A stretch of 64,000 nucleotides of DNA from a virus (Duplodnaviria; Heunggongvirae; Uroviricota; Caudoviricetes): the IMG/VR virus record IMGVR_UViG_3300037471_001733, positions 22,201 through 86,200 of that record; one strand, written 5' to 3'. The notes beneath the pieces are model-generated. The model had not been told where the DNA came from. It made no database searches and was given only the letters and a program-made list of their open reading frames with translations. Of the stretch, positions 11,482-62,986 are shown one piece after another. How positions within the stretch are numbered: position 1 is the stretch's first letter; every line of letters begins with the position of its first letter. The translations under genes and the position numbers were made by a program.

Positions 11482-11756
11482 TCGGCAGCCTTCCCGTCAC
11501 CGGCACGCGCGCGGATGCCCATCAGGCCCAGGCCCAGCGCCAGCAAGCCGCCGACGATGAAGCCAGCCGGCAGGGAGTACAGGCCGGTGCCATAGGCAAC
11601 AGCCCCGGCGCCGCCCAGCGCCAGCATGTCCGGCATCAGAAAGGCCAACAGTTCGCCGCCGGCCGCAATCAGGCCCAGCATGGCGCGGCCAAGGGTCAAC
11701 ATTCGGCGGGCCAGAAATGTCCTGGCACCGGCGATCTTCGTTCGCAGGTTTTTCAC
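11478..11756 (-). CDS. Small hydrophobic protein between terminase and portal
   Basis: 92 aa, Gly/Ala/Leu-rich predicted membrane segments; overlaps the stop and start of both neighbours. Confidence 0.4.
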   Translation of the reverse strand: MKNLRTKIAGARTFLARRMLTLGRAMLGLIAAGGELLAFLMPDMLALGGAGAVAYGTGLYSLPAGFIVGGLLALGLGLMGIRARAGDGKAAE

Positions 11757-13513
11757 GGCGTCAGGACTTCCCAGAATGACTTTCCAGTGGACTCGGTGGT
11801 TCTGGACATCAAGCCCACGGCCATCACAGCCGCCACGATGAGGTCGATGCGGCCCGTGGCCTTTTCCTTGCTGAGCTTGCGGTTCTCGGCGTCATCCATC
11901 ACCGTCACCGCGTTGCTCGCACACCAGTTGAAAACTGGGTGGTCGTTGTGCGCCAACTCGTTGTTGAGCAGCATTCGCTCGAACTCTTCAACGGCTGGCG
12001 AAGCCTCTTTGTAACCTTGCCCGAACGCGACCATGGGCGGTAGGCTGATGCCTTCGTCGTCGGCAAGCGCCAGCAAGTCTTCGATGCGCCAGCGGTCGTA
12101 TGCGACGCCCTGGATCTCGAATGCCTCGGACAGCGCGGACAGCCGCTGCAGCACGTTGCGCTTGCTGATCGCGCGCCCCGGCGTGGTGTCCAAGTGCCCG
12201 GCAGCTTTCCACTGCACGTAGGGCACTCGATCGGTTTCGGCCTTCTTCTGCAGCCCCTCATCAGGCAGCCAGGCGAACGGCACTAGGTGCCACGGCTCGC
12301 CTTCCTCTTGCGGCTCAACCAGCAGCACCAGCCCCGTAAGGTCGGTGGTGGACGACAGGTCCAGCCCGGCCCAGGCTCGCCGGCCGCGCAGGTCTTGCCA
12401 GTTGAAGGTGCGAATCGCACTCTTCCAAACGTCGGCCGACAGCCACGGCGAATCGGCATCCGTCCACTGGCAGAAATTCAGCCGGCGGACGATCGCCTCC
12501 TTAGACGGCATGCCGCGCGCTTCGGTCACCTGCTCGCGCAGGTACTTCATGCCCGGCAGATCGGCGTCCTGCAGCGAAGGGTTGGCCTTCACCCAGCACG
12601 ACTCGTCCGAGAAAGGATCCTCGCCTTCATCTAGGGCGCACACGAAACTGAAGAACGCATCGTCCTCCAGCGTCCCCGCTGCGACCTTTGCGCCGTACTC
12701 GTGGTACGCCCAGCACGGCCCCCGTTTGTCGGAGCCGCTGTTGGTGATCATGAAGATCAGCGCCTGCCGCCGGCTCTTGGTGCCGGCGCGCATCATCTCC
12801 ACGACCGTGTTGGTCTTGTGCTCGTGCAGCTCGTCGATGAGCGCAATGTGCGGCCGCGGGCCGGACTGCCCATCGTCCGAGCTGATCGGGCGGAAGAAGC
12901 TGCCGGCCTGCAGGTAGGCCAGGTTCCACACCCGCTCGCCCGTGCCGCTCTTGGTCAGCCGCTTAGCGAGTTCCGGCGACTGGTCCACCATGGCCACCGC
13001 GTCGCGGAAGAGGATCATGGCCTGATCCTTCTTCGTCGCCGCAGCGTAGACCTCTGCGCGCGCCTCGCTGTCGGCGGTCAGGCCAAGAAGCCCAATGCCC
13101 GCCGAAAGGGGCGACTTCCCGGAGCCCTTGGCCGTCTCGACGTAGGCAACACGGAACCGCCGCCAGCCGTCAGAACCCTTCCAGCCGAACAGACTGCCGA
13201 TGACGAATTTCTGCCACGGCAGAAGCTCGAAGGGCTTTCCCTCAAAGTCGCCGCCGTTGAGCTTCAGGACGTTGCGGTAGTACCGCAGCGCCTTCAGGGC
13301 GGTCTCCAGGTCCCAATTCAGGCCGCGTGCCGGGCCTTTCTCCAGGTCGCGCAGGTGGCGCGCGCATGCCGCGCGCACATGCGGGCCGGCGATGCGTTTG
13401 CCGTCAACGACGGATTGGGCGTACTCGGTGACCGGATCGTCACCAGTCGGGACGTCAGCCGAAGAATTCCTGTAAGTGGTCTTCCTTTTGGTCGTCGTCG
13501 GCGTTTTGGACAT
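11753..13513 (-). CDS. Terminase large subunit
   Basis: 586 aa; Walker-A-like ETAKGSGKSPL plus a C-terminal nuclease-like region; Terminase_1-type. Confidence 0.85.
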   Translation of the reverse strand: MSKTPTTTKRKTTYRNSSADVPTGDDPVTEYAQSVVDGKRIAGPHVRAACARHLRDLEKGPARGLNWDLETALKALRYYRNVLKLNGGDFEGKPFELLPWQKFVIGSLFGWKGSDGWRRFRVAYVETAKGSGKSPLSAGIGLLGLTADSEARAEVYAAATKKDQAMILFRDAVAMVDQSPELAKRLTKSGTGERVWNLAYLQAGSFFRPISSDDGQSGPRPHIALIDELHEHKTNTVVEMMRAGTKSRRQALIFMITNSGSDKRGPCWAYHEYGAKVAAGTLEDDAFFSFVCALDEGEDPFSDESCWVKANPSLQDADLPGMKYLREQVTEARGMPSKEAIVRRLNFCQWTDADSPWLSADVWKSAIRTFNWQDLRGRRAWAGLDLSSTTDLTGLVLLVEPQEEGEPWHLVPFAWLPDEGLQKKAETDRVPYVQWKAAGHLDTTPGRAISKRNVLQRLSALSEAFEIQGVAYDRWRIEDLLALADDEGISLPPMVAFGQGYKEASPAVEEFERMLLNNELAHNDHPVFNWCASNAVTVMDDAENRKLSKEKATGRIDLIVAAVMAVGLMSRTTESTGKSFWEVLTP

Positions 13514-13955
13514 GAACCTTGGACCTCGCGGCCGGCGTCAGCCCGAACTCGACCAGCCACGCCTTGAAGCGCCGGTCGGCATCGGCCAGCATGGCCACCG
13601 CCGGGTTCGCTTTGATGCTGCGGTCGCCCTGCGTGTTCGTTGTTTCGTAGGTAGGGCCGTCCTGGTTCACCAGTTCCTGATACCGCAGGATCTCGGCGTA
13701 CACGGCGCAGCCTCTCTCAAGGGCGTAGGCATCGGCCTCGGTTAGCACGCCCATCCGATCCAGCAGCACAGACATGCGGCCCCAGGCAACCTTGGCCTCG
13801 TCGGACAAGTGGCTGGGGCAACTAGGTATCTCGCGGCGTGGTTTGGGCTCGCTCTTGTTGAGCGCGCGCCTTCCCGGGTTGCCTGTAACTATTTTTAAGT
13901 GGCTCGGTTTTGGCCTGCGCCCCGCCATATCTCTATTCCTTGACTGGCCAGCCAT
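13455..13955 (-). CDS. Terminase small subunit, P27 family
   Basis: 166 aa; KPSHLKIVTGNPGRRALNKSEPKP...FGLTPAARSKV is typical of P27-family small terminases. Confidence 0.7.
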   Translation of the reverse strand: MAGQSRNRDMAGRRPKPSHLKIVTGNPGRRALNKSEPKPRREIPSCPSHLSDEAKVAWGRMSVLLDRMGVLTEADAYALERGCAVYAEILRYQELVNQDGPTYETTNTQGDRSIKANPAVAMLADADRRFKAWLVEFGLTPAARSKVHVQNADDDQKEDHLQEFFG

Positions 13956-14552: not shown

Positions 14553-15449
14553 CTATAACCCCAACTGCAGTTGACCAAGAGACTTGCTTCCCTTGGACCG
14601 GTTGCACCCAAAGCACTCGCACTGCGTGTTGCTATAGCTGTGTGGACCTCCATCGCGCAGGCTGACAACGTGACCAAGCTCCGGTGCGCCCTCAATCCTC
14701 TTGCCCATCTTCGACCTCGGCGTCTTAATGCCGCAAATCTTGCAGCGCCAGCCGTCGCGCTCAAAGACAGACAGCTTGTCCACCTTCTCGTACTCGCAGC
14801 CGAACTTTCTGGCGCGACGCCGATGCGTGGTGCCGCTAGTGGCTCTGTAACGGTAGCTCAGCTGACAGGCTATCGAGCAGTACTTTTGGCGCAGGTCGCC
14901 ATAGTCCGGCGTGAACGCAACTTCGCAGAAGCCGCACTTGCGAGGCGACCGGTCGCGGCTACGCTCTTGCTTCTTCCGATTGTAAACCTTGCTCCTGCAT
15001 TTGCTGCTACAGAAGTTCGCATCCGGCATCTTGGCCATGAAGTCGCGCCCGCAGGACGGGCTGGCGCAGACCCTGGCATAGCGCAGCTTATTCTGGCCGC
15101 GCTCCTTTTTCTCCGGCGCTGGAACGCACTCATAGCAGAACTTGCGCGGCTTGCCGTTCTTAAATAGTGGCTTTGGGTGGCGGCAGCCGTTTTCATTCCG
15201 GGTCCTGCACTCGTCGGAGCAATGACTGCGGCGCAGCTTCGTCGGCTTGAAGGGCATTCCACAGTAGGCGCATAACCGCGGCGGTTTCGGAGGCACGGGC
15301 GGATTCTTCCGTGGTCGTCCAGCGCCAGGACGGCGGCCGCCAGAGTTTGGACGCGGGCCACCGCGCTTTGAACGCGACGCCTCGACCAGTGCGCATAGCG
15401 CGCCTTTGCAGCCGCCAACAGACAGCCGCCTATACTCGCCTTCAACCAT
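14553..15449 (-). CDS. HNH endonuclease with N-terminal Arg/Pro-rich multi-zinc-finger region
   Basis: 298 aa; many CxxC pairs, then C-terminal GWRCKICG...ELGHVVSLRDGGPHSYSNTQCECFGCNRSKG (HNH); RBS AGGAAG. Confidence 0.7.
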   Translation of the reverse strand: MVEGEYRRLSVGGCKGALCALVEASRSKRGGPRPNSGGRRPGAGRPRKNPPVPPKPPRLCAYCGMPFKPTKLRRSHCSDECRTRNENGCRHPKPLFKNGKPRKFCYECVPAPEKKERGQNKLRYARVCASPSCGRDFMAKMPDANFCSSKCRSKVYNRKKQERSRDRSPRKCGFCEVAFTPDYGDLRQKYCSIACQLSYRYRATSGTTHRRRARKFGCEYEKVDKLSVFERDGWRCKICGIKTPRSKMGKRIEGAPELGHVVSLRDGGPHSYSNTQCECFGCNRSKGSKSLGQLQLGL

Positions 15450-16190
15450 GCTGACTTCCTATACAAGTTGGTATGGCCAGAGACCCGGTCGTGTTGCAAG
15501 CGCGACTGGGTTTCGCCATTTTGGCCTAGAACCAACAAATCTGCTGGACAAAACCACAGTTCCCAGGGCGCCAAGAATTTCCTCTCAAAACGCGCCTCTG
15601 AACAGCAAGGTCAACCGATGGTTTACAAGCCGAGGGCTGGGAAGAACTGATTGGGGTATTGGGGGGTGCGCCTCGACTCTCCCCACGCCCAGCCGCGCCA
15701 GCTGTCAGCGCACGAGCTGCCGCTCAGCACGAGCTGCGCCGCTCGATCCCTGCTGGTGCTGGTGCTGCGCGTTGTCACGAGGGGTGCGGCGCCGCCTGGC
15801 TGTCGAGTGCCTGCGGTTATGTGGCGAGGGTCTGCCGCTGCGCCAGTGCACCCGGGCCGCTGCGCGGCCGTGCTCCTGGTGGTGGCGTGCTGGAGCTCCG
15901 ACCGATCGGCGCAGGCAAGCGCCATGGTGCGAACGGTGCACGAGGGAATGCGGCGCAGTGCTGGTGCCTGCGGCTTAGTGGAGTGCTGCGGCTTTGTGGA
16001 GTGGCGCAACTAGTGGAGTGCGCCGTGCTGCAGGGCATGGCGCCATGGACAGGGGTGCAGCGCTGCTGCGCCGCTGGTGCTGTCTCACCCGTGCCGATCG
16101 GCTTCCGCTGCAGGGGCGCTGGTGCTGGAATGCAGGCACCAAAGCAAAAGGGCCGCACGAGGCGGCCCATGGCGTGGAGTGCTTTGGTCT
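15450..16190. repeat. Non-coding GC-rich repeat region (candidate cos/pac or replication origin)
   Basis: No credible ORF in any frame. GTGGAGTG at 15999, 16017, 16034 (17-18 bp spacing) and 16194; GCTGGTGCTG-type motifs at 15771, 15985, 16095, 16142, 16210. Confidence 0.5.
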
Positions 16191-16440
16191 AGGTGCTGGC
16201 GGCTTTCCGCTCCCGTCCTATACGGATGGCATGGGCAAGCGCGGCCATCTCCCGACCGTTGTCGTAAGGGCCGCGCGCCACCGGCTTTTTGCTGATGCCT
16301 GCGGCTGGCAGCAGGCCAACGAAGCCGGCTTCGTCCACGAAGTCTAGATATGTCATGGCGCCGATGGTCTTGACTGCGATGACACAAGCAACGCTGCCGC
16401 CGCCGATGGTGGGGCGCATGAAAAGGTCCCCGGCTTGCAT
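16189..16440 (-). CDS. Hypothetical protein (last gene of the small-gene operon)
   Basis: 83 aa; junction CTGAGGAGGGGACGCC-ATG with the upstream gene. Confidence 0.4.
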   Translation of the reverse strand: MQAGDLFMRPTIGGGSVACVIAVKTIGAMTYLDFVDEAGFVGLLPAAGISKKPVARGPYDNGREMAALAHAIRIGRERKAAST

Positions 16441-16452
16441 GGCGTCCCCTCC

Positions 16453-16746
16453 TCAGTGGGCCAGCAGATGCCGCACGCTGGCGCCATCCGGTATCCGCAG
16501 CATTGCCGCCACTGCATCCACGTATTCCGGTGCAGGCCGGCGCAATTTGTACTGCTGGTCTCCATACGAGTTGGGAATGGTGCGCGATTCAATCAAGCCG
16601 CGTTCCCTAAGCGCGCGGAATGCCCGGGTGTCATCTTCTGGCGCCACCTCAGCAGCGGCGGCAATGTCATGCCATGAGGGGAGACGGATAGTCCCGTCTG
16701 CATTGGTACGGGAAGCGAGCAGGGCATACAGACGATTGAGGTTCAT
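16453..16746 (-). CDS. Hypothetical protein, possible winged-helix DNA-binding
   Basis: Start chosen at MNLNRLYALLASR (97 aa) because of the CTGAGGGGCCGCGCC-ATG junction; the longer ORF (to 16911) overlaps the upstream gene. Confidence 0.4.
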   Translation of the reverse strand: MNLNRLYALLASRTNADGTIRLPSWHDIAAAAEVAPEDDTRAFRALRERGLIESRTIPNSYGDQQYKLRRPAPEYVDAVAAMLRIPDGASVRHLLAH

Positions 16747-16757
16747 GGCGCGGCCCC

Positions 16758-17132
16758 TCAGATGTCCCAGACGCCATCCACGGTCGCGCCGTGCGCCGCC
16801 TCGTGGGCGTGCGCCGCGATGGCCGCCACGAGGCGCCCGCCGGGCGTTGCTTCCAACGTATCGCCCTCGCTGCACTGGTACTGCAGGCACCGCGCCAGCG
16901 AATGGAACCATGCGGCGGTCTGATTTGGCATGGGGCGCGCCAGCAGTGCACGCAGGCCCTGCAGCGGCTGCCGATCCTCCGGGTAACGCCCCTCATAGCG
17001 GGTTGCGTGGGCGTAGTTGTTGGCTGCACGCAGCGAGATAGCCGCCTGCGCCGCATCGTCGGCGATGCCCTGGGAAACGGCCCATTGCGCCACGGTGGCC
17101 ACGTGCAGATCAGAGCAGATAAAGCAAGACAT
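16758..17132 (-). CDS. Hypothetical protein
   Basis: 124 aa; RBS AGGAGAT 7 nt before the ATG. Confidence 0.4.
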   Translation of the reverse strand: MSCFICSDLHVATVAQWAVSQGIADDAAQAAISLRAANNYAHATRYEGRYPEDRQPLQGLRALLARPMPNQTAAWFHSLARCLQYQCSEGDTLEATPGGRLVAAIAAHAHEAAHGATVDGVWDI

Positions 17133-17182
17133 GGTGTGATCTCCTATTGCCGCTCATGCTGGCGGCGCAGCGGGTTGAAGGG

Positions 17183-17453
17183 TTAGTCCTCGCGCGGTGT
17201 CTCAATTTGATGCGGCAGGGGTCGCCCCATGCCGTCGGCGCAGTAAAGGGACGTAGAAGCACCGCACGGCAGGTATGCCGGCGCGTCAATTGGCCCGCCT
17301 GCCGTCACATCCATACATGCCCCGTACCGAAATTGCCGCCGGTCTTGATGCAGATGGATCAATTCGACCGTCTGCCGTTGGACTTGCCCGCCGGTCACAT
17401 TGTGGAAAGCGCCAGCAGCAGCGCGGCGGATGGTTTCTGATTGCATGGACATG
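17183..17453 (-). CDS. Hypothetical protein
   Basis: 90 aa starting MSMQSE; preceded by the exact junction CTGAGGAGCGAACC-ATG. Confidence 0.45.
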
Positions 17454-17462
17454 GTTCGCTCC

Positions 17463-17691
17463 TCAGTTGAAGCCCTTGTCCGCCTCGATCTGGCGCAGGA
17501 TCTCGACTGCCTCAGCGATCGGCACGAAGTCAGACAGGGGGTCAACAATCGTTTTCTTGCCCACGGTCACCAGCACGACGCGAAACTTTCCGCGCGCCGC
17601 CTCAGTGCTGATTCCGGGCATGCCGGTGGCGGCGCGCGCGGCAAGGGTGGCGGCTCGCAATTGCTTGAGTTGCTCAAACATGGTTCGCTCC
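17463..17691 (-). CDS. Hypothetical protein
   Basis: 76 aa starting MFEQLK; preceded by CTGAGGAGCGAACC-ATG. Confidence 0.45.
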
Positions 17692-17931
17692 TCAGATACC
17701 GAAAACTTGATTGATCGCAGCGCGGCGCAGTGCCTCGCAGTGCATCTGCGCCACGGGTTGATTGATCTCGTCCACCACGTCAAGTGCATCGTTAACGGCA
17801 TCCATGAGATGCGCCATGGCGATATCTTCCGGGTTTGCTTCTACGTGATTGCGCAACTGCAGGCGGGCGCTCAGCAGGTTTTCGACGATCACGTCGAATT
17901 GCTTGACATGCATGGTCACAGGGGTGGGCAT
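17692..17931 (-). CDS. Hypothetical protein
   Basis: 79 aa starting MPTPVT; junction CTGAAAGGTCGAGCC-ATG. Confidence 0.4.
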   Translation of the reverse strand: MPTPVTMHVKQFDVIVENLLSARLQLRNHVEANPEDIAMAHLMDAVNDALDVVDEINQPVAQMHCEALRRAAINQVFGI

Positions 17932-17942
17932 GGCTCGACCTT

Positions 17943-18176
17943 TCAGCGCATGTTGATGTAACCCGGCATGCCGAGTGCGCGCGCCAGCACGTTTGCCGCG
18001 TGGCGGTCTGCAAGGTTGCATATCAGGTACTTGGCCTGCGCGACCGCTTCGAAGTGCGCGCTCTGCGCCTCTTCGTATTCCTGATGGGTTCGATTGCTGT
18101 CGCCGATCATGTGCACGTGGCCACCGATGGCGGGCCGCAATTCCTTGGCGATGCTGATGGCAGTTCGGATATTCAT
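17943..18176 (-). CDS. Hypothetical protein
   Basis: 77 aa starting MNIRTA; preceded by CTGAGGAGCGAACC-ATG. Confidence 0.45.
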   Translation of the reverse strand: MNIRTAISIAKELRPAIGGHVHMIGDSNRTHQEYEEAQSAHFEAVAQAKYLICNLADRHAANVLARALGMPGYINMR

Positions 18177-18186
18177 GGTTCGCTCC

Positions 18187-18318
18187 TCAGTGCGCCGCAC
18201 GAATGGCGGCAATGTCTGCATGGATCAGCGCGCGGACTTGCAGGCGGCGCACGAGGGATTGATCGTTGCGCATGGGTAGCAGAACCCGCAGCGCATACAT
18301 AAGAGAGAAACGAGACAT
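18187..18318 (-). CDS. Possible 43-aa leader ORF of the leftward operon
   Basis: MSRFSLMYALRVLLPMRNDQSLVRRLQVRALIHADIAAIRAAH; RBS AAGGGG; its TGA lies inside the CTGAGGAGCGAACC-ATG junction of the next gene. Confidence 0.3.
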   Translation of the reverse strand: MSRFSLMYALRVLLPMRNDQSLVRRLQVRALIHADIAAIRAAH

Positions 18319-18366
18319 CTCAACCCCTTGCCACTGATTACGCGCGGCGCCGTTTGGTATGTCTCT

Positions 18367-18395
18367 AATGTAGGCGATACGACTACATGATGCAA
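18367..18395 (-). promoter_or_regulatory. Leftward sigma70-like promoter with palindromic operator O1 in its spacer
   Basis: Minus strand TTGCAT-N17-TACATT; the spacer contains the palindrome ATGTAG-N9-CTACAT (18368-18388). Confidence 0.55.
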
Positions 18396-18660
18396 GCCCT
18401 TGCGCAAACTTTTTTCATGCGCCATGGCGGCGCGGCTGCACGTATATTGATAGTGCTGCGCCGCATAGGTGCGGCTTTGCTTTGCCTGCTCGCTTTTGCC
18501 TGCTGGTGCTGCAGCATGGGCACGAGTGCCTGCGCCATGGATGCGCCGCACTGGTCTGCGCGCCGTGCGCCGCCTCGTGCTGATCAGCTGCGCCGCCGGT
18601 CGAGCTGGTGCGCGACGTTGAGCGGCTGCCTCGTGCTGGCAATCGAGCGAGTGCGCGACC

Positions 18661-18770
18661 TGGCGCACCCCCTCTGATGGAAACACAGGCAACCCCCTGG
18701 AGTGGAAACACAGGCCAGGCGCACCCTCTCCACGGGAATTACGGAACCCCCTGAGATGGAAACAGGAATT
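18661..18770. repeat. Four tandem direct repeats of about 27 bp between the divergent promoters
   Basis: GCGCACCCCCTCTGATGGAAACACAGGC / CCCCCTGGAGTGGAAACACAGGCC / GCGCACCCTCTCCACGGGAATTACGG (degenerate) / CCCCCTGAGATGGAAACAGGAATT. Confidence 0.6.
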
Positions 18771-18784
18771 CACAAATAAACTAC

Positions 18785-18813
18785 TTGCGTTCTGTAGTCG
18801 TTGCGCCTACATT
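18785..18813 (+). promoter_or_regulatory. Rightward sigma70-like promoter with palindromic operator O2 in its spacer
   Basis: TTGCGT-N17-TACATT; the spacer contains CTGTAG-N9-CTACAT (18792-18812), about 60 bp upstream of the 18873 gene. Confidence 0.55.
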
Positions 18814-18872
18814 GGACACATCGCAGCACTGCTGCAGCGGCGCCACCCGCGACGAGTGGCACTGGAGTTGAT

Positions 18873-19547
18873 ATGTTTGGAAAATACGGCAAGCGGATTA
18901 CCGATCCTGCGGAACTGCGCGAGTATCGTTTGAGCTATGTCCCGGCCGCGCTGCGCGACCAGTGCCAGCACGTGAAGTGCAAAACCGGCGATGCTGAGGC
19001 GTGGATCTGGAGCGACAAGGGCCGCGCCTACGCGGTGGGTTTCTCCGGTCGCGGCAAACACCCGTGGTCGCGCAATGGTGGCCAGGGAGCGGCCTACTAC
19101 TTCAAAACCCCGGAAGCGCGCCGCTCCTGGGTTGCGGAACTGTTTGCAGACGCCATGGCCGACGCAAAGCGCGCCGAGGAGCGCAAGGCGCAAAAGGCCG
19201 CAGCGCGTGCAAAGCCGCACGCCTTGCAGGTGGGAGATGTGTTGCGCTCCTCCTGGGGGTACGACCAAACCAATATCGACTATTACGAGGTCACGAAGCT
19301 TGTCGGCTCACAGATGGTCGAGGTTCGGCGCATTGCCTGCCAGTCTGAGGAAACCGCGCACATGCAAGGCGTGAGCGTTCCCGCCCCTGGCCACTACATC
19401 GGCGAGCCGAAGCGTTGCAAGGTCTCCGACTACGGCAACCGCGACTCGGTCAAGGTGTCCGAGGTGGCGCACGCCTACAAGATGACCCCGCGCATCGTCG
19501 GCGGCGTCAAGGTTTTCAACTCGTCTAGCTGGACGGCCTACGCCTGA
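18873..19547 (+). CDS. Hypothetical protein (first gene of the rightward operon)
   Basis: Start moved to the internal ATG at 18873 (RBS GGAG 5 nt upstream); 224 aa; no family recognised. Confidence 0.5.
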   Translation: MFGKYGKRITDPAELREYRLSYVPAALRDQCQHVKCKTGDAEAWIWSDKGRAYAVGFSGRGKHPWSRNGGQGAAYYFKTPEARRSWVAELFADAMADAKRAEERKAQKAAARAKPHALQVGDVLRSSWGYDQTNIDYYEVTKLVGSQMVEVRRIACQSEETAHMQGVSVPAPGHYIGEPKRCKVSDYGNRDSVKVSEVAHAYKMTPRIVGGVKVFNSSSWTAYA

Positions 19548-19605
19548 TCAACCAGGGCCGCTCATGCGGCGGCCCCCTTACGTGAATTTCACAGGAGCAC
19601 CGACC

Positions 19606-19908
19606 ATGGGCACCACGACCGGCCGACTCTTCCGCACGATCCGCAGCACGGGACGTGGAAGCGACTACTTCGGCACCTGCGACCAGTGCGGCAAGCACAT
19701 GAGCGAATGCCACGTGAGCCAAGTTCAGCGCGAATATCGGCGCGACGATGGCACCACGTACACCGGGCCCGTGACCGGCGGCGCCTATGGGCATCGTGAG
19801 TGCTTGGTCAAGCACTTCGGCGAACCCGTCCCAGCGGTGACGCGCGAATCCGTGCGAGTTTCGCCCTTTACTGATCCGGCGCGCTTCCCCAAAACGCTGC
19901 GCGCCTGA
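19606..19908 (+). CDS. Hypothetical Cys/His zinc-binding protein
   Basis: 100 aa; CDQCGKH...CH...HREC; RBS AGGAG. Confidence 0.45.
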   Translation: MGTTTGRLFRTIRSTGRGSDYFGTCDQCGKHMSECHVSQVQREYRRDDGTTYTGPVTGGAYGHRECLVKHFGEPVPAVTRESVRVSPFTDPARFPKTLRA

Positions 19909-19944
19909 CCCCTTCCGTAGATTGCACAGCAGGAGCACCACACC

Positions 19945-20340
19945 ATGGGAGCAGCAGCAGAACACCGGGGCAATGCCCTGATCCGCAGGCAGGCCGGCGC
20001 AGCGCATGCCGCGCGCCAAGCCATCGAGGACGCAGCGCGCGCCGCGCAGGTGGCCGAGGACTGCAACGAGTTTGCCCGCCAAGCGTGGGCGTATCTGCTC
20101 GACCCTTCCGGCCTGCGGCAACCCGCAGTGGAGCGCGCAAAGACTCGGCGCGGCTGGGCTAAGCGCCATGCGGAACTCAGTGCCGCGCATTGCGCATGGG
20201 TTGATGCGGACCATCGCAACGCCATGGCCTACCTTAGCGCCTGCATCCGCCGCGCGAAAGCCGCGCATGCGCTACTCACATTTGCGCTGGGCGGCTGGAC
20301 GATCCCGGATCACATTGAAGTGCCGCGCGCTGCGGCTTGA
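19945..20340 (+). CDS. Hypothetical alpha-helical protein
   Basis: 131 aa; RBS AGGAG. Confidence 0.45.
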   Translation: MGAAAEHRGNALIRRQAGAAHAARQAIEDAARAAQVAEDCNEFARQAWAYLLDPSGLRQPAVERAKTRRGWAKRHAELSAAHCAWVDADHRNAMAYLSACIRRAKAAHALLTFALGGWTIPDHIEVPRAAA

Positions 20341-20453
20341 CCCCTTCCGGCGCACTCGCAAGGGTGCGCATTGCGATGCAGCCACGCGGAAGCATCGCAA
20401 TGCGCCAGCGCGCATAACGGCGCCGTCCCGGCTTGAGGCGGCAGGAGATTCAG

Positions 20454-22262
20454 ATGTCAGCACAAGACTTGATTGTTAGGATCAACGCAGCCGCCCAGGT
20501 GGCCCCGGAGCAACTGCCCAAAGGGGCGCAGCCGCGCGACCACATGATTGCCTTTGAGTACACCGACGCCCACGGCACGCGCGGCTGCATGCGCATCCTG
20601 AACACCCGGGCGCGGCTGCTGGCCTTCGCTGAGCAGGTGCGGAAGAACGCGGCAGCATTCGACGGCAAGCCGCGCAGCAAGCCCGCCGGGCCGCGCAAGA
20701 TTGCCGGCGCATCCCCGCTTTCCACGGCGCGCGCACTGCTCAAGGATGGCGCGCGGGTTGAAGCCCTCGCAGCGCTTGAGGCGCGCGGCGGGGAGGTGTT
20801 TTTCGGCGCCGCTGGCGTGCCTGTGCTGCATCAGGTTGCACAGCGCGTGGAGCACGAGGGCCGCCGCTGGGTTGTCACGCGCTGCGCCGTTGATGGTCTC
20901 ATCTACCTCATTCACGAGGCGTCCGGGCTGTCAGCAGGCGGCAAGGGCTTGCCTGAGATGCGCAGCATTGCGGATGCCCTGGCGCGGCTTGAGCTCGTGC
21001 ACCGGGACGAGGCGGAAAACGGCTACCGGCAGCGAATGATTGCTGCGATCGAGCAAGCGGCGGATTACGACCAGCAGGCGGCGCGCGCGGCTTTCGAGGC
21101 GTGCGATGGTCTCAAGAGCAAGGATGCCGCGCCGGTGGCTCAGGAAGCGTACCAGCAGGCGCGCGCGCTGTCGGCGGCGCAGGTGGCGCCCGATGTCGAG
21201 CCGGCAGTAGATGCAGACCCCTCCCCGGTGGAAAGCGAAGCCGAGGCGGCACCCCCTGTAGCGGAAACGCCTGCGGCAGCTGACACCCCTGCAGCGGAAA
21301 TCGAGTCCAGCGCGCCGGCGGTTGCGCCAGCATCCCCTCCGGCGGATTCACAGGCAGGCGCTGCACCCCCTGCGATGGAAAGCGCGCAGCCTGCGCCGCT
21401 TGCCACCGCGCCAGGCCGATCGGATGCGCTCATCGCGCGGGCCATCGCTTGGGTTGCCGTAGTCTGGGGAACCGCCAGCGTGCCGAGCGTTGCGGACTAC
21501 CGCGCCGGCCGGTGCGATGACACATTCCCGTGGGCGGGCGGCAGCCGCGCCGCCGGCTATCTGACATGGGCCGACCTCATTGGCGAGTGCATGGCCGCGC
21601 TGGAGCGCGACGACAGCGCCGACCAGGCGGCACGAGACGCCGCACTGCAACCACCGACCCCCATCCGTAGGAAAGGCCCGCGACAACATGAGCAGCACAC
21701 CCCATCCCGTGCAACCCGCAGTGCCAACCGGCCGCGAGTGGTGGACCCGCGGGCTGCTCGACTGGCACGCCGAGGCGCTGCACGCCGCCCAGGAGATCGC
21801 CGCGCTGCGCGAATCACTGGCTGCGGAGCGCGCAATGGTCCGCGAGCTGCAGGAGGCGCTCGCTGCCCGCCGGCAGGCCGCTTGACCCCTTCCCGGGGAA
21901 TCACGGCGCCACAAGCTTGCCGCCCCTGGCGCGACGCCAGCGAAACCCGAGACTGCACCCATAAAAACCTGGAGCACAGCATGACCTACACCGAAGCCAT
22001 CCAAGCCCTGCGCGACGCTATTGCGCAGGCCCCGAAGGGTGAAAAGCTGCAAGCCTTCCAAGCCAAGCGGGAGAAGATAATAGGGGCAATGCCCAAGGTG
22101 GAAATCTGTGGCGGCGAGCAGTGCATCCGCTATCCCAAGGGCTACCGCTTTGACTGCGGTCGCGAGGTCCACACGGACTGGATGTGGCAACCGTTTGCCA
22201 GCGAGGAAATCGCCATGCGGCCTGGCAACCTGCCGTACATCCTGCGCATGCCGGCTGCCTGA
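20454..22262 (+). CDS. Large ORF with acidic Pro/Ala-rich repeat linker; the 3' third is doubtful (possible frameshift or composite of two or three genes)
   Basis: No stop from 20454 to 22262, but 21650-21980 translates as Arg-rich low-complexity while another frame gives a coiled-coil ORF (21688-21885); a separate RBS plus ATG at 21981 starts a Cys-containing C-terminal domain. Confidence 0.35.
   Translation: MSAQDLIVRINAAAQVAPEQLPKGAQPRDHMIAFEYTDAHGTRGCMRILNTRARLLAFAEQVRKNAAAFDGKPRSKPAGPRKIAGASPLSTARALLKDGARVEALAALEARGGEVFFGAAGVPVLHQVAQRVEHEGRRWVVTRCAVDGLIYLIHEASGLSAGGKGLPEMRSIADALARLELVHRDEAENGYRQRMIAAIEQAADYDQQAARAAFEACDGLKSKDAAPVAQEAYQQARALSAAQVAPDVEPAVDADPSPVESEAEAAPPVAETPAAADTPAAEIESSAPAVAPASPPADSQAGAAPPAMESAQPAPLATAPGRSDALIARAIAWVAVVWGTASVPSVADYRAGRCDDTFPWAGGSRAAGYLTWADLIGECMAALERDDSADQAARDAALQPPTPIRRKGPRQHEQHTPSRATRSANRPRVVDPRAARLARRGAARRPGDRRAARITGCGARNGPRAAGGARCPPAGRLTPSRGITAPQACRPWRDASETRDCTHKNLEHSMTYTEAIQALRDAIAQAPKGEKLQAFQAKREKIIGAMPKVEICGGEQCIRYPKGYRFDCGREVHTDWMWQPFASEEIAMRPGNLPYILRMPAA
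21688..21885 (+). CDS. Alternative-frame 65-aa coiled-coil ORF inside the large ORF
   Basis: RBS AGGAAAGG; MSSTPHPVQPAVPTGREWWTRGLLDWHAEALHAAQEIAALRESLAAERAMVRELQEALAARRQAA. Confidence 0.3.
   Translation: MSSTPHPVQPAVPTGREWWTRGLLDWHAEALHAAQEIAALRESLAAERAMVRELQEALAARRQAA
21981..22262 (+). CDS. Possible independent 93-aa Cys-containing protein (same frame as the large ORF)
   Basis: RBS TGGAG 6 nt before the ATG; CGGEQC...DCGREVH. Confidence 0.35.
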   Translation: MTYTEAIQALRDAIAQAPKGEKLQAFQAKREKIIGAMPKVEICGGEQCIRYPKGYRFDCGREVHTDWMWQPFASEEIAMRPGNLPYILRMPAA

Positions 22263-22404
22263 CGCATTGTCCGGTGGCGCAGCCTTTGGCGTTCAGCGCT
22301 ATTTGAACAAGGTGCGCGGTTTAGTTCAGGCGTACTTGAATAGCGCCCCCCCATGTAGTGAAAACAGGGCATCAACCCCATCCAGCGGATACAGGAGTCA
22401 AACC

Positions 22405-22695
22405 ATGGGAAGTATCAACCTCGGCCGCCACCACGTCGCCATCAGCGATCAATGGACGATCTACACCCCTGGCCTACCTGGCTGGCAGATGCTGGGCGTG
22501 ATCACCCGCAGCAAGGGTGGCGAGCAGATCACGAAGGCGCTGGCCCGCAGCCCGAAGGGCGAGCTCTGCGCGGTGCGTGGGCTGTCAGCCGAGCCGCTTG
22601 TCCAGCGAAAGGCTGAAGCGGCGCTGGCGGCTGCGATGCGCGAGGCCCATCCGGTGGAAACAGATGGCACCCATTCCGAGGGAAACAGGGCTTGA
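22405..22695 (+). CDS. Hypothetical protein
   Basis: 96 aa from the internal ATG with RBS AGGAG; the upstream part of the track ORF is GC-rich junk. Confidence 0.45.
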   Translation: MGSINLGRHHVAISDQWTIYTPGLPGWQMLGVITRSKGGEQITKALARSPKGELCAVRGLSAEPLVQRKAEAALAAAMREAHPVETDGTHSEGNRA

Positions 22696-22719
22696 ATATG
22701 TAGGTTAAGCGCCTACACT
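22691..22719 (+). promoter_or_regulatory. Promoter of the XRE gene with palindromic operator O3 in its spacer
   Basis: TTGAAT-N17-TACACT; the spacer is ATGTAG-N9-CTACAC (22698-22718), 8 bp before the ATG. Confidence 0.5.
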
Positions 22720-22725
22720 GGCATC

Positions 22726-22956
22726 ATGAGCACCTTACCGCCGCGCACGCCAGAGAACATCAAAGCCTTCCGCCAGCGTGCCGGCTGGACGCAGGAGAAG
22801 GCATGCGAGATGGCGTGCATCCACGACCGCCAAACCTGGCGTAAGTACGAAAACGGCACGCTCAAGATGAGCGAAGAGCGCTGGCGGCTGGCGCACTTTA
22901 TGGCCAACCTGCACCCCGACTTCGACGTTCGGCCGCGTACCAAGGCTGCGGCCTAG
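22726..22956 (+). CDS. XRE-family HTH transcriptional regulator (candidate operator-binding autoregulator)
   Basis: 76 aa; IKAFRQRAGWTQEKACEMACIHDRQTWRKYENG matches the HTH_XRE pattern. Confidence 0.7.
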   Translation: MSTLPPRTPENIKAFRQRAGWTQEKACEMACIHDRQTWRKYENGTLKMSEERWRLAHFMANLHPDFDVRPRTKAAA

Positions 22957-22989: not shown

Positions 22990-23334
22990 TCAACCGTTTG
23001 GGTTCTGTGCCAGCCAAGCCCGGATCATCGCCTTGACCGCGGCGTGCAGGCCGTGTGGCGCGTAGACGCCACGCACTTCCTCGATACCTCTTTCCTTGAG
23101 CAGGGCCCTTCTTGCTCGATTCCTCTCTGTCGAGCTCTTCCCCGAAGGGGCTTTCGCGGTGGCGTTCATGAGCAGTTCCGTGCCATCGATTTTCTTCTCA
23201 GGCAAGGAGCAGGGGGCCAGTTCGCACTCTGCGGGAGCATTTGAGGGGGGCGGTTTGTTCTCGACCATTTGGCATTGACCCGTCGCGCGCGACGGTCCAT
23301 CATTCTTCGCTTTTCGACGATCAGAAGCCGCCAT
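22990..23334 (-). CDS. Hypothetical protein (weak)
   Basis: 114-aa ORF convergent with the XRE gene; no clear RBS. Confidence 0.3.
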   Translation of the reverse strand: MAASDRRKAKNDGPSRATGQCQMVENKPPPSNAPAECELAPCSLPEKKIDGTELLMNATAKAPSGKSSTERNRARRALLKERGIEEVRGVYAPHGLHAAVKAMIRAWLAQNPNG

Positions 23335-23568
23335 AAGTTGTGATGCGGCCGGAGTGCGCTAGTTGCAAGAACTATCAATTGGCATTCTCAAGGCGCAAGC
23401 GTGTCTTGCCAAGACTTTGTTGCACAGAGAGCGGCATGGATGCCGCTTTTGCGTTTGTGCAATCACCTCGAAAGGTTCCTGCCAGAGGATGCCGCCGATT
23501 GCCCACTATGGGGCAGGAACCAGTTCCACAATCGAAGCGCCACGCACTACGAAGAGTGGAGTTGCGCC

Positions 23569-24279
23569 ATGGACTGCGGCAAGAGAAGAACATGGGAGTG
23601 TGGCGTGACAACGAACTCTAAGAGGCTTTCTGGTAGACCATCTTTTAATTGGTCTATACCTGAGCCAGAAGAAGTTAAAGAAGTTAGATTGAAAGCCAAT
23701 TTGTCTCAGAGAGAAGCTTGTAATCTTTCTGGGATTAAAGAAGTAATGACTTGGAGTAATTGCGAAACTAGGAGAGCCGATGGCACTCCTAAGGCCCGCA
23801 TGGACCCAATTAGATGGGAATATTTCCTTCTAATAGTTGGACAACATTCCAAATTCGTTATTCTTCCGAGACTCGGGGTTGAACAGCCAAGAGAGGCGGC
23901 AGCTTTAACTAGGAAAGGTCCGTCTCTGCCTGGGGAGAACATTACTTTCGCAGTCGAGAGCCGAACTAGTGAAGACGAGTGGCGCTTGGTAGAAGGCGGA
24001 CAGTTCACAGCTCTGACTGCGGCATGTGTGGCCATAGACACGATGGTTGCCTGCAGGAACCTAAATGAACTAAGGGTGTCGCGTTACTCAGGTGGCGACT
24101 TCGTGATGGCAGTGCATGGGCCTGGTGTCTCTATGGACGAAGGCCCGAAGCGTTTTACCCATGCAAAGGCTGCGCCATCTCGAAGGACTGGGACTGACAG
24201 GAACGGAGCAGACCCAGGAGACCCAGATAATGATGGAAATGGAAGCAGAAATTCCAATGGTTTCGACCCTCAGGATTGA
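23569..24279 (+). CDS. HTH_XRE-domain protein with unknown C-terminal domain, in a low-GC island
   Basis: Start at the internal ATG (RBS GGAG); VRLKANLSQREACNLSGIKEVMTWSNCE is HTH-like; local GC about 45-50% against about 65% in the flanks. Confidence 0.5.
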   Translation: MDCGKRRTWECGVTTNSKRLSGRPSFNWSIPEPEEVKEVRLKANLSQREACNLSGIKEVMTWSNCETRRADGTPKARMDPIRWEYFLLIVGQHSKFVILPRLGVEQPREAAALTRKGPSLPGENITFAVESRTSEDEWRLVEGGQFTALTAACVAIDTMVACRNLNELRVSRYSGGDFVMAVHGPGVSMDEGPKRFTHAKAAPSRRTGTDRNGADPGDPDNDGNGSRNSNGFDPQD

Positions 24280-24306
24280 CATTCCCCGAAATAGGGAAGC
24301 CCAGGA

Positions 24307-50432: not shown

Positions 50433-51374
50433 ATGACTACTGCACTCGCTCTCATGAGCAACCGCCTGGCGCAACGCTTCGGCATGGTCGAAGACGCCGA
50501 GTTGATTCCTGTGCTCAAGGCAACTGCGTTCAAAGGTCAGGTCAGTGACGCGCAGATGACGGCGCTGCTGATCGTTGCCGATCAATACGGCCTGAATCCG
50601 TGGACCAAGGAAATCTACGCTTTCCCAGACCCGCAGAACGGCATCGTGCCGGTGGTCAGCGTTGACGGCTGGAGCCGCATCATCAATGAGCACCCCGCCT
50701 TCGACGGCATTGAGTTCGAGTTGTCCGGCAAGGGCGATGACATGGAGATGCTGTGCCGCATCTTCCGCAAGGACCGCAGCCGCCCGATCGCAGTGACGGA
50801 GTACTTGACCGAGTGCAAGCGTGAAACGAAGCCTTGGAAGTCTCACCCGCGACGCATGCTGCGTCACAAGGCTGAGATCCAATGCGCCCGATTGGCCTTC
50901 GGCTTCGCTGGGCTCCACGACCACGACGAGGCGGAGCGCATTGTGGAAGCATCGTCTGGCGCACCGAAGAACATGGGGGCAGCCCAGGTGGTCGAGGCCG
51001 CCGCAGCTGCGGAAATGCCGCTCGGCCTGCTGGAGTCAGCCGAGAGCGCTGCGACCGAAGGGGTGGCCATCTATCAGGAATTCTGGAAGTCAACCGGCCC
51101 GGAAAACCGCAAGGCGCTGGCTGGCCACCATGCGCGGCTGAAGCAAGCAGCCATTGACGCCGACGCGGCGCGCACGGTGGAGATGCCCACGACCGGCGGC
51201 CAAGCCGAGCAGCCCACGCTGGACCTGGTGGCGCTGGAGCGGCGCATCGGCAGCTGCAACGACGCTCAGGTGTTGCTGCTCATTGCCGACGACGTGGCCA
51301 CGCTGCCCGAGGGTGAGGATCGCGCGCGGCTGGAGAAGTTGATCGCGGTGCGCGGCGAAGCGCTGGAGGGCTGA
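50433..51374 (+). CDS. recT: RecT-family single-strand annealing protein
   Basis: LNPWTKEIYAFPDPQNGIVPVVSVDGWSRIINEHPAFDGIEFE...MLRHKAEIQCARLAFGF; RBS GGAGACGG. Confidence 0.8.
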   Translation: MTTALALMSNRLAQRFGMVEDAELIPVLKATAFKGQVSDAQMTALLIVADQYGLNPWTKEIYAFPDPQNGIVPVVSVDGWSRIINEHPAFDGIEFELSGKGDDMEMLCRIFRKDRSRPIAVTEYLTECKRETKPWKSHPRRMLRHKAEIQCARLAFGFAGLHDHDEAERIVEASSGAPKNMGAAQVVEAAAAAEMPLGLLESAESAATEGVAIYQEFWKSTGPENRKALAGHHARLKQAAIDADAARTVEMPTTGGQAEQPTLDLVALERRIGSCNDAQVLLLIADDVATLPEGEDRARLEKLIAVRGEALEG

Positions 51375-51377
51375 TCT

Positions 51378-52064
51378 ATGGCGCTAATCGTCCACACCGA
51401 CCCGCAGGGTAGTGAGGCGTGGCTCGCGGCACGCCGCGGCATCCCGACCGGCAGCCGTTTCAAGGATTGCCGTGACTACCTAAAGCCCACGGCAGCCGAG
51501 GTCAAGGCCGGCGCCACGCGCGGCAAGCCCTCCGCGAAGCTGCTGGGCTATGCGATGGATCTGGCGCGCGAGCGGGTCGGTGGCCATGTGCCTCCCGTGT
51601 TCCAGACCGCCGCGATGCGTACCGGCCATATCGAGGAGCCAAAAGCACGACTCGCCTACGAGGAAGAGACCGGCAACATCGTGATCGAAGCCGGCTTCAT
51701 CACGACGGAAGACCGGCGCTGGGGCGTGTCGGTGGACGGCCTCGTGAAGCCCAAGGGTGGAATCGAGGTGAAGACTATGGTGAGCAGCGCCACGCTGTTC
51801 AAGGCCGTGGTCGAAGGCGACATCAGTGAGTACATCGACCAGATCAACGGCGCGATCCTGCTGCTTGAACTGGACTGGCTCGACCTTGTGCTCTGGGCGC
51901 CCGACCTGGCGCACCTGGGGCGCGGGCTCACCATCCGCCGCATCTGGCGTGACGAAGCTGCGATCCGAGCACTGGAAGCGGACCTGCTGACCTTCGTGGC
52001 GCTGGTCAATGACTTCGAGGCCGCGCTGCGTGCGCCGGCAGTGGAAACCGAAGGAGCCTTCTGA
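51378..52064 (+). CDS. YqaJ-like PD-(D/E)XK exonuclease (RecE/lambda-exo partner of RecT)
   Basis: HTDPQGSEAWLAARRGIPTGSRFKD N-terminal motif; immediately downstream of recT. Confidence 0.75.
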   Translation: MALIVHTDPQGSEAWLAARRGIPTGSRFKDCRDYLKPTAAEVKAGATRGKPSAKLLGYAMDLARERVGGHVPPVFQTAAMRTGHIEEPKARLAYEEETGNIVIEAGFITTEDRRWGVSVDGLVKPKGGIEVKTMVSSATLFKAVVEGDISEYIDQINGAILLLELDWLDLVLWAPDLAHLGRGLTIRRIWRDEAAIRALEADLLTFVALVNDFEAALRAPAVETEGAF

Positions 52065-52607: not shown

Positions 52608-53357
52608 GTGATCCACTACCACGGACTGCCGATTACGCCGGACACGGCAGCAGAGCGTGCTATTGCTGGCGGCCATGCGTTTGTGTCATTCGCGCACCCT
52701 GAGCAATTGGGTCTCGCTGCGGCTGTGGCGCAATCATTCGCCATTGATAACGGCGCGTTCTCGGCTTGGCGGGCCGGCCGTCCGGTAACGGACTGGACGC
52801 CTTTCTACGAATGGGCTGCCGCAGCCAAGCGCATCCCTGGCTGCGACTTCGCCGTCATACCTGATGTCATTGACGGCACTGAGGCTGACAACGATGCGTT
52901 GCTTGCCGAGTGGCCGCTGCCCAACTGGTTCGGGGCGCCCGTGTGGCACATGAACGAGGGCCTGGATCGCCTGGAGCGCTTGGCCACCGTCTTCCCTCGC
53001 GTGTGCATCGGCAGTTCTGGCGAGTTCGCAATGGTGGGAACGCCGACGTGGTGGGGCCAGATCGCCCGCGCCATGCGTGTTGTGTGCGACGACGATGGGC
53101 GCCCGATGTGCAGGCTCCATGGCCTGCGCATGCTGGACCCGGAAGTGTTCAAGCATCTCCCGTTTTCCAGCGCAGACAGCACGAATATCGGCCGCAACAT
53201 TGGCATCGATCAAGCTTGGCGCGGCACCTATACGCCGCCGACGAAAGAGGCGCGGGCAGCTGTCATGCGCTCGCGCATTGAGGCTGAGAACGCGCCAGCA
53301 CGCTGGGCGTTTCGCATCCCCGAGTTCCATCCTGAAGACCAAGGGAGCCTGCTGTGA
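52608..53357 (+). CDS. Candidate DpdA-family (TGT-like) DNA-guanine transglycosylase; start uncertain (GTG 52608; track ORF from 52485)
   Basis: Call rests on context: directly precedes and overlaps queC-queE-queD. N-terminal HYHGLPITP is reminiscent of the TGT HGxxxTP motif. No family-level motif verified. Confidence 0.4.
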   Translation: MIHYHGLPITPDTAAERAIAGGHAFVSFAHPEQLGLAAAVAQSFAIDNGAFSAWRAGRPVTDWTPFYEWAAAAKRIPGCDFAVIPDVIDGTEADNDALLAEWPLPNWFGAPVWHMNEGLDRLERLATVFPRVCIGSSGEFAMVGTPTWWGQIARAMRVVCDDDGRPMCRLHGLRMLDPEVFKHLPFSSADSTNIGRNIGIDQAWRGTYTPPTKEARAAVMRSRIEAENAPARWAFRIPEFHPEDQGSLL

Positions 53358-53890
53358 GCAAAGTTATCCTGTTGTCCGGCGGCCTGGATTCCGCCCTGTG
53401 CTTGGCTCGCTACGGCGCCGACTTGGCCATTGGCTTCAATTACGGACAGCCGCATGCGATTGAGTTGGCCCATGCCGAGCGCATTGCAAGGCAGCACGGC
53501 GTGCCTTTCGAGATCCATGCGCTGCCGACCATGCCGCGCGTCAACGACGTCGTCTTCGCCGGCCGCAATGCGGTGATGCTGACGGCAGCCGCAGCCATTG
53601 CTCAGGCGCGCGGCCACGACGCGGTGTTGATCGGCTGCAACTTCTCGGATGCCACCCGGTTTCCTGACTGCCGGCCGGAATTCATTCGCAACATCAGCAA
53701 GGCGCTTGAGTCGGCATATGGCGTAAGCGTCTGCGCGCCGCTGCTGTTGTCCACCAAGACGCAGATAGTGGCAGAGGCCAAGCAACGCGGCATCACGGAC
53801 ACCTGGACCTGTTACGCGCCCACAACTGATGGTCAGCAGTGCGGCCAGTGCTACTCCTGCCAGGGCATCGCCTCAGCGAGCGCGTCATGA
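53354..53890 (+). CDS. queC: 7-cyano-7-deazaguanine synthase QueC
   Basis: PP-loop VILLSGGLDSALCL; C-terminal CGQCYSCQ zinc site; GTG start overlapping the upstream stop. Confidence 0.85.
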   Translation: MSKVILLSGGLDSALCLARYGADLAIGFNYGQPHAIELAHAERIARQHGVPFEIHALPTMPRVNDVVFAGRNAVMLTAAAAIAQARGHDAVLIGCNFSDATRFPDCRPEFIRNISKALESAYGVSVCAPLLLSTKTQIVAEAKQRGITDTWTCYAPTTDGQQCGQCYSCQGIASASAS

Positions 53891-54965: not shown

Positions 54966-54973
54966 CGAGCACC

Positions 54974-62957: not shown

Positions 62958-62986
62958 TGGTACTCCAGAAAATCAGATTCGTGGGC

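Follow-up and report, generated by a model that had tools for sequence, protein, structure and literature searches.

Can one small regulator account for the same palindrome lying in three promoters of a single phage? The question is raised by a 64,000-nucleotide stretch of a Caudoviricetes genome (IMG/VR record IMGVR_UViG_3300037471_001733, positions 22,201 to 86,200), the whole of which is called the window below. In it the palindrome TGTAG-N9-CTACA sits inside a leftward promoter (P_L), a rightward promoter (P_R) and the promoter (P_X) of a gene for a 76-residue helix-turn-helix (HTH) protein of the XRE family, referred to here as window XRE. A preliminary description of this DNA had proposed that this protein acts as a dimer to repress its own promoter, P_L and P_R. 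That proposal is supported by the predicted fold, by the homology of its family to the anti-CRISPR-associated (Aca) repressor Aca10, by the palindromes found beside homologues and by the co-occurrence of operator and regulator in other phages. We consider it probable that window XRE is an Aca10-like homodimeric repressor of its own gene and of two neighbouring operons, acting through one 19-bp palindrome per promoter. A metagenomic phage that otherwise lacks annotation would thereby gain a concrete regulon open to testing, with one repressor acting on one operator at three promoters.

The putative operator and its three promoters

A scan of the window finds exactly three copies of TGTAG-N9-CTACA, at 18369-18387, 18793-18811 and 22699-22717, which are the three sites with common half-sites in promoter spacers that had been described before; 100 dinucleotide shuffles of the window contain none. 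In a look-elsewhere test, every pentamer palindrome with a spacer of 3-12 was scored against its own expectation. TGTAG-N9 was the most significant 5-mer palindrome of the window (expected 0.023, observed 3, Poisson p 2e-6), a significance reached in 0 of 60 shuffles. Taken as a bare count, three copies of some 5-N-5 palindrome are nothing unusual in DNA of 64% GC, where the highest count that GC-rich pentamers reach in a shuffle is typically 5-7, so the argument is carried by the rarity of TGTAG and by the register of the sites within the promoters. Each copy is found either outside coding sequence or at the end of a gene, and all three share an identical register between a TTGnnn -35 and a TACAnT -10 hexamer, with the left half-site beginning 1-2 nt past the -35 and the right half-site overlapping the -10.

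P_L (18367-18395, minus strand) holds the first of these sites between the -35 hexamer TTGCAT (18395-18390) and the -10 hexamer TACATT (18372-18367), with a 17-nt spacer, and drives a leftward operon of small genes. P_R (18785-18813, plus strand) holds the second between TTGCGT (18785-18790) and TACATT (18808-18813), again with 17 nt, and drives a rightward operon. P_X (22692-22719, plus strand) holds the third between TTGAAT (22692-22697) and TACACT (22714-22719) and overlaps the stop codon of a 96-residue gene. The hexamers named in the preliminary description are present at all three promoters; the 17-nt spacer it gave for P_X is 16 nt with TTGAAT, and becomes 17 nt only if the -35 is read as CTTGAA. 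Activation of the MerR type was considered and rejected, because the spacers measure 16-17 nt rather than 19-20.

P_L and P_R form a 38-nt inverted repeat (82%; 18359-18396 versus 18784-18821) whose similarity extends into the 5' leaders (18329-18352 versus 18838-18861). The two inverted duplicates flank a 387-bp non-coding segment, and they count as one origin, not as two independent occurrences. This duplication with its similar leaders, together with the overlap of the right half-site CTACA with the -10 hexamer, would fit a reading in which the palindrome has no operator function at all and is a by-product of promoter duplication and of a TACAnT-type -10, the left half-site being coincidental. 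We regard this as highly improbable. P_X is independent of the other two promoters, with which it shares the half-sites and hexamers only, its flanks being different; many phages, with GC contents of 30-70%, keep TGTAG at a constant distance in promoters unrelated to one another; and the motif is strongly enriched upstream of genes of the family phrog_37844 and tied there to the presence of an XRE gene, as set out below.

Near matches elsewhere in the window were set aside. A site with one mismatch (62949-62967) was judged to be chance, as it overlaps a start codon and lacks promoter hexamers in register, and a site with two mismatches (21257) lies within an Ala/Pro-rich coding repeat. No TGTAG site was found at the replication and recombination genes elsewhere in the window.

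The XRE protein and its paralogue

The gene of window XRE (22726-22956, plus strand) is the last of the P_R operon and stands directly after P_X. It has no Shine-Dalgarno sequence and its ATG (22726) starts 6 nt past the -10 hexamer of P_X, so the mRNA made from P_X is probably leaderless. The protein scores 29.3 bits against Pfam HTH_31 (cutoff 27), which places it in the XRE family. Its AlphaFold model has four helices and a mean predicted local distance difference test score (pLDDT) of 93.8, and the Foldseek neighbours of the model are C-proteins, HipB, Aca10, Aca1 and the C-terminal domain of MqsA, the top matches all being XRE regulators. These neighbours are dimeric autoregulators that bind palindromes.

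A word-index search and tblastn with the protein found only window XRE itself; exhaustive searching with HMMER revealed a family that is small and coherent, with 80 representatives among 1.84 billion proteins and the consensus PTPxxIxAxRxxAGLTQxxAAxLxxLxxxxRWSEYERGxRxMDxxRWELFLLxxGxHP. Family profiles that include window XRE match Aca10 (7xi5) with E-values of 1.1e-17 and 2.8e-13 over residues 3-60, and in the family-profile search that gave the latter value (A2) the next XRE protein stood at 1.7e-4. In the alignment, Gln22 of Aca10 is kept as Gln23 in window XRE.

Aca10 (PDB 7XI5; TGC30851) is encoded in the acrIC7-acrIC6-aca10 operon of Pseudomonas citronellolis, and its dimer binds a palindrome of 19-21 bp (minimal 19 bp) that sits between, and partly covers, the -35 and -10 hexamers of the promoter of its own operon, TTGCAA-N16-TATTCT (PMC9410881). 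Window XRE resembles Aca10 in being a small XRE HTH protein of a single domain whose gene stands last in its operon, and the profiles of its family match Aca10 over the whole length. The length and placement of the operator are also identical, 19 bp in the spacer and over the -10, at all three window promoters. Aca10 represses its own operon by occluding the promoter, and by analogy we propose that window XRE does likewise. The two systems differ in the half-site (TGTAG... here, ATACGC... in Aca10), in the number of regulated promoters, which is three here and includes a dedicated, probably leaderless one for the regulator, and in their cargo, which here amounts to about 16 genes, none of them a known Acr.

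A second gene of the same kind, missing from the preliminary description, lies 600 bp downstream of the XRE gene (23569-24279, plus strand). Its 236-residue product begins with an Aca10-like HTH domain and has a C-terminal domain of no known type. The N-terminal domain scores 54.8 bits against the hidden Markov model (HMM) of the XRE family, is 32% identical to window XRE across the HTH (E 4e-9), and shares with it unusual 'AC' and 'TW' residues in helices 2-3. The 236-residue protein could be the main binder of the palindromes or a competitor for them, the two forming a pair like CI (large) and Cro (small) that share operators in a true switch. This seems unlikely to us. The gene lies in a low-GC stretch (23300-24300, GC 0.46-0.53 versus 0.64 overall) and is probably a moron of recent acquisition; no TGTAG site lies upstream of it; its recognition-helix residues are unlike those of window XRE; and in other phages the operator accompanies small XRE proteins inside an operon, not a two-domain protein of this type.

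P_L and P_R are divergent, as in bistable switches of the CI/Cro type, but no antagonist was identified among the operon genes, and the 236-residue protein is at most a candidate for one. The two operons contain just two HTH genes: that of window XRE, which closes the P_R operon, and a winged HTH (wHTH) gene of the P_L operon whose match is sub-threshold. The locus had been called a second switch, which overstates the case: nothing shows bistability, and the architecture is that of an autorepressed operon of the acr-aca kind.

Operators, regulators and cargo in other phages

Whether window XRE is the protein that reads the palindrome can be approached through other phages, in both directions. 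Forward scans of viral contigs looked for two sites 390-420 bp apart and for the pattern CTTG-N5-TGTAG-N9-CTACA-NT. They returned many promoters of identical architecture, in phages of 35% to 73% GC. The locus L184/L387 has three such promoters in tandem, the last of which drives a homologue of phrog_37844 that is 34% identical to the 224-residue protein encoded first in the rightward operon of the window. At another locus (L221) the promoter is followed by a leaderless gene for an acidic 93-residue protein and then by a 68-residue XRE protein that is 34% identical to window XRE and scores 87 bits against the family HMM; the arrangement at L203 and L285 is similar.

In the reverse direction, 80 viral loci encoding members of the XRE family were searched for operators. 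Two of them (L324, L338) have TGTAGCGG(A/T)A(A/C)CCGCTACA over a TACACT -10 hexamer that is followed after 6-8 nt by the start codon of the XRE gene, just as at P_X, and each has a second operator about 60-70 bp upstream. Variant palindromes occupy the equivalent place at five more loci (L313, L322, L310, L309, L320), and those found before the XRE genes of relatives include GGTAACGGAAACCGTTACA, TGTACGGGAAGCGTACA, TACGCCTAGCGTA and AACGCTTAGCGTT. Such variants are the pattern expected if operator and recognition helix drift together.

The cargo gives a third line of comparison. Relatives of phrog_37844 occur at more than 500 viral loci, and at 28 of 89 distinct loci an Aca10-like XRE gene lies downstream in the same orientation, no more than 4 kb away and in most cases within about 1 kb. 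The exact N9 pattern was found at none of 160 loci encoding phrog_37844 homologues, because those phages use N7 spacing or other palindromes. In AT-rich phages, palindromes of the TGTAG type with N7 spacing lie over the -10 upstream of phrog_37844 genes, for example TTGACAtagTGTAGTAaaaCGCTACAAT. When the pattern was widened to TGTA[GA]-N7/9-[CT]TACA and applied to 139 distinct phrog_37844 loci, 18 matches fell in 34.7 kb of upstream sequence and 15 in 1014 kb elsewhere, so that the motif is about 35-fold denser in the 250 nt upstream of these genes. An XRE gene lies downstream at 12 of the 12 operator-positive loci with enough downstream sequence, versus 17 of 77 operator-negative loci (Fisher p 2.2e-7), and the XRE proteins of the operator-positive loci have one common type of recognition helix, LLGVHRVTYxxWExG.

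Two phages more closely related to that of the window have operators of other specificities and show how the module has been rearranged. In L443, which has a DnaC-like protein 55% identical to its window counterpart and a homologue of the 224-residue protein at 54%, an XRE family member scoring 85 bits is encoded in the divergent, leftward operon, and the intergenic region holds a 19-bp palindrome, TCTAG-N9-CTAGA. In L447, whose cargo is 70% identical, the equivalent promoter holds the palindrome GTTCATTGAAC, and a homologue of the 43-residue protein encoded in the leftward operon of the window precedes the 222-residue gene. These placements indicate that operons were rearranged around the duplicated promoters, and the sequences suggest recombination at the promoter duplicates.

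A further short motif, GGAAACA, recurs near the operators. Of its six copies in the window, five closely precede P_R or P_X, and none is near P_L. Upstream of P_R it is part of three 24-nt direct repeats, ACCCCCTnnnnTGGAAACACAGGC, at 18667-18690, 18692-18715 and 18746-18769 (spaced 25 and 54 nt), and upstream of P_X two copies 25 nt apart (22656-22662, 22681-22687) lie inside the end of the 96-residue gene. In relatives the same core is central in the operators themselves: TCTAG-GTGGAAACA-CTAGA in L443, ...CGGAAACCG... in L324 and L313, GTAGCGGAAACTGTTAC in L184 and CTAGGGGTAAACACCTAG in L445. The copies in the window may be weak operators, sites of the paralogue or something else.

Proposed circuit, known systems and gene neighbourhood

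From the observed sites and their register, the fold and family of the protein, and the association of operator, XRE gene and cargo in other phages, we infer binding, repression and timing as follows. On phage entry, host sigma-70 RNA polymerase would fire P_L, P_R and P_X. Window XRE would accumulate, translated from the probably leaderless P_X transcript and from P_R read-through, and its dimer would bind the 19-bp TGTAG-N9-CTACA sites. Since each palindrome takes up the spacer of its promoter and extends over the -10, the bound dimer would occlude RNA polymerase at all three. The outcome would be negative feedback on the XRE gene and a coordinated shut-off of two divergent accessory operons, one with eight small genes running leftward and the other with about eight running rightward, the first of which encodes the phrog_37844 protein. 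Such a circuit would be of the acr-aca type, extended to three promoters.

Several points weigh against this account. The hexamers of P_L, P_R and P_X are weak, matching the consensus at 7-8 of 12 positions, and a generic sigma-70 scan did not flag them; and P_L and P_R, as an inverted repeat, are not separate cases. Window XRE taken alone matches Aca10 with an E-value of 0.19. The position of the critical Arg44 of Aca10, an arginine in most other family members, is Leu46 in window XRE (Lys47 is adjacent), the dimer residue Gly49 is replaced by Glu51 and the dimer-interface residue Glu52 by Arg54, so the functional residues of Aca10 are not kept as a set. Given the single-sequence E-value and Leu46, window XRE is best described, by its sequence, as a distant member of the Aca10 superfamily. 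The 236-residue HTH protein discussed above may itself bind these sites, in place of window XRE or alongside it. Finally, no cargo gene matches a known anti-defence family in Pfam, PHROGs, PADLOC or NCBIfam.

Other points of the same kind concern the motif outside this clade. L387 carries three of the promoters, together with a CI-like/Cro-like pair, and has no Aca10-like gene in the 11.7 kb available. Promoters with TGTAG-N9-CTACA also head higBA pairs (L205, L274) and CI/Cro-like pairs (L199, L216), the latter with the promoter before a Cro-like gene that stands opposite a CI-like gene, so the motif is not exclusive to this XRE clade; next to it in these cases, too, stands a regulator of the XRE type. 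One might then suppose that the palindromes are operators of some other regulator, such as the CI/Cro-like pair at 44.3-45.2 kb of the window, the wHTH protein encoded at 16453-16746 or a host factor, and that the XRE gene is simply one of the targets. We hold this to be very unlikely. The 44.3-45.2 kb region has no TGTAG-N9-CTACA site, either exact or with one mismatch; homologues of the XRE gene show the same signature of autoregulation, a palindrome that covers the -10 immediately ahead of the start codon; operator and XRE gene co-occur at 12 of 12 loci; and the regulators adjacent to the promoters in L199 and L216 are themselves XRE proteins. Repression by window XRE remains our preferred explanation of the sites.

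Beside the higBA pairs the palindrome takes a longer form. TGTAGCG-N5-CGCTACA lies in promoter spacers before higB-higA in L205 (-13407) and in L274 (9038, 9651), and in L274 the same palindrome also heads the promoter of the next gene.

The regulatory logic itself is already known, and the window is a new example of a described type of circuit. Besides Aca10, the nearest precedents are Aca proteins that control several operons. PMC13551039 (NAR 2026) predicts co-regulation by Aca proteins of as many as three neighbouring operons, only one of them with the aca gene, and multi-operon regulation has been shown for Aca11 and Aca13 (PMC12282945). As in those cases, one putative Aca-type repressor in the window would serve up to three sites, with the regulator gene in one operon; unlike in those cases, two of the three window promoters form a divergent pair made up of inverted duplicates. 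Neither the TGTAG-N9-CTACA specificity nor the conserved phrog_37844 cargo was found in the passages of these two papers that were consulted. The window would add to the Aca10-like family an operator specificity that is new, TGTAG-N9-CTACA, of which AT-rich phages have an N7 variant.

Two other kinds of circuit resemble the locus in part. C proteins such as C.Esp1396I and C.Kpn2I are among the closest structural neighbours of window XRE (TM about 0.6), which is 30% identical to C.Kpn2I over 53 residues; they are similar in size, about 75-100 residues, and bind palindromic boxes in their own promoters. Several C-protein promoters give leaderless transcripts. C proteins differ from the circuit proposed here in that they act through two adjacent operators, first as activators at low concentration and later as repressors, and in that they control restriction-modification (R-M) genes; neither R-M genes nor tandem C-boxes occur in the window operons, the palindrome at P_X is single, and the likeness is one of structure only. 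The immI region of phage P22 (Arc/Mnt, P_ant) has a small repressor acting on a 21-bp operator between the -35 and -10 hexamers of divergent promoters, outside the main immunity region. The window likewise has a secondary regulatory region with a putative small repressor at divergent promoters. Arc and Mnt are ribbon-helix-helix proteins that target an antirepressor, whereas neither homology to them nor an antirepressor was detected in the window.

The cargo itself has few recognisable features. Searches of Pfam, PHROG, PADLOC and NCBIfam with the roughly 16 genes gave no function. The rightward operon begins with the phrog_37844 gene (18873-19547, plus strand; 224 residues, PHROG match 8.4e-29), whose protein model (pLDDT 91.5) has a long helix and SH3/Tudor-like barrels and gave no convincing structural match. 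It continues on the same strand with genes without family matches at 19606-19908 (100 residues), 19945-20340 (131 residues) and 22405-22695 (96 residues). Between the last two lies an open reading frame (ORF) of 602 residues (20454-22262), one gene in the source annotation, in which the frame indicated by GC content at third codon positions (GC3) changes twice. The GC3 frame plot splits it roughly into 20454-21560, 21580-21885 and 21984-22262; the middle reads as out-of-frame Arg/Pro-rich sequence, and the ORF 21580-21885 and the segment 21984-22262 look coding. The stretch is probably two or three genes, and its irregularity could stem from overlapping genes, a frameshift or an assembly error.

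The leftward P_L operon (16150-18318, minus strand) has eight small genes, at 18187-18318 (43 residues), 17943-18176, 17692-17931, 17463-17681, 17183-17452, 16758-17132, 16453-16746 (the sub-threshold wHTH gene, Crp-like) and 16189-16440. It had been thought to run into the HNH/terminase region; instead it ends at a terminator-like GC-rich hairpin with a T-run (16168-16150, minus strand), about 700 bp before the HNH gene (14553-15449). A late-promoter role for P_L is unlikely because of this hairpin. The roughly 700 bp between hairpin and HNH gene (15450-16149) contain no called gene and are a candidate location for a late promoter, the cos site or both. Beyond it lie TerS (13455-13955) and TerL (11753-13513), both leftward, from which the structural genes run on leftward.

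Judged by operon architecture, the cargo may consist of early accessory genes, possibly for anti-defence. The very widespread phrog_37844 and about 15 orphan genes are thereby flagged as candidates for tightly controlled early functions of this sort. Most anti-CRISPRs were found through guilt by association with Aca genes, so the phrog_37844/Aca10-like module is a practical screening lead. A more speculative picture, which we put forward tentatively and rate as possible at best, is that the phrog_37844 family is an unrecognised anti-defence or host-takeover effector policed by Aca10-like repressors in a broad range of phages. Here a single repressor would gate a 16-gene accessory island via three operators, and the inverted promoter duplication would let cargo operons shuffle their orientation, as in the comparison of L447 with L443.

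Both leaders of the divergent pair may form a short hairpin. That in the P_R 5' untranslated region (UTR), GCCAC...GUGGC (18842-18860, plus strand), lies just before the Shine-Dalgarno sequence, and its counterpart in the P_L leader is GCCGC/GUGGC (18330-18348, minus strand); both are tentative. L447 has an equivalent short hairpin, GCCGCAG/CUGCGGC, before its Shine-Dalgarno sequence. In none of the three leaders is the hairpin more stable than in shuffled sequences. They recall the RNA motif, a 5' UTR hairpin, that PMC13551039 predicts for aca10 operons.

Judging by its sequence, the window is a phage genome without a close relative among deposited phages: megablast of the 17-24 kb region against phages gave no match, and the capsid protein is at most 38% identical to that of any deposited phage. 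One of the viral loci (L081) is an identical copy of the window. An Rfam search of the whole window gave no match, and a profile scan of genome contigs with the AGWTQ subgroup returned only two irrelevant loci. Reading the translations by eye, we take the genes at 52608-54507 (plus strand) to be a set like those for 7-deazaguanine DNA modification, with DpdA-like, QueC-like ('SGGLDS') and QueE-like ('CNLWSG') proteins. Nearby are what are presumably RecT/exonuclease-like genes (50433-52064) and an RdgC-like gene (54917-56038).

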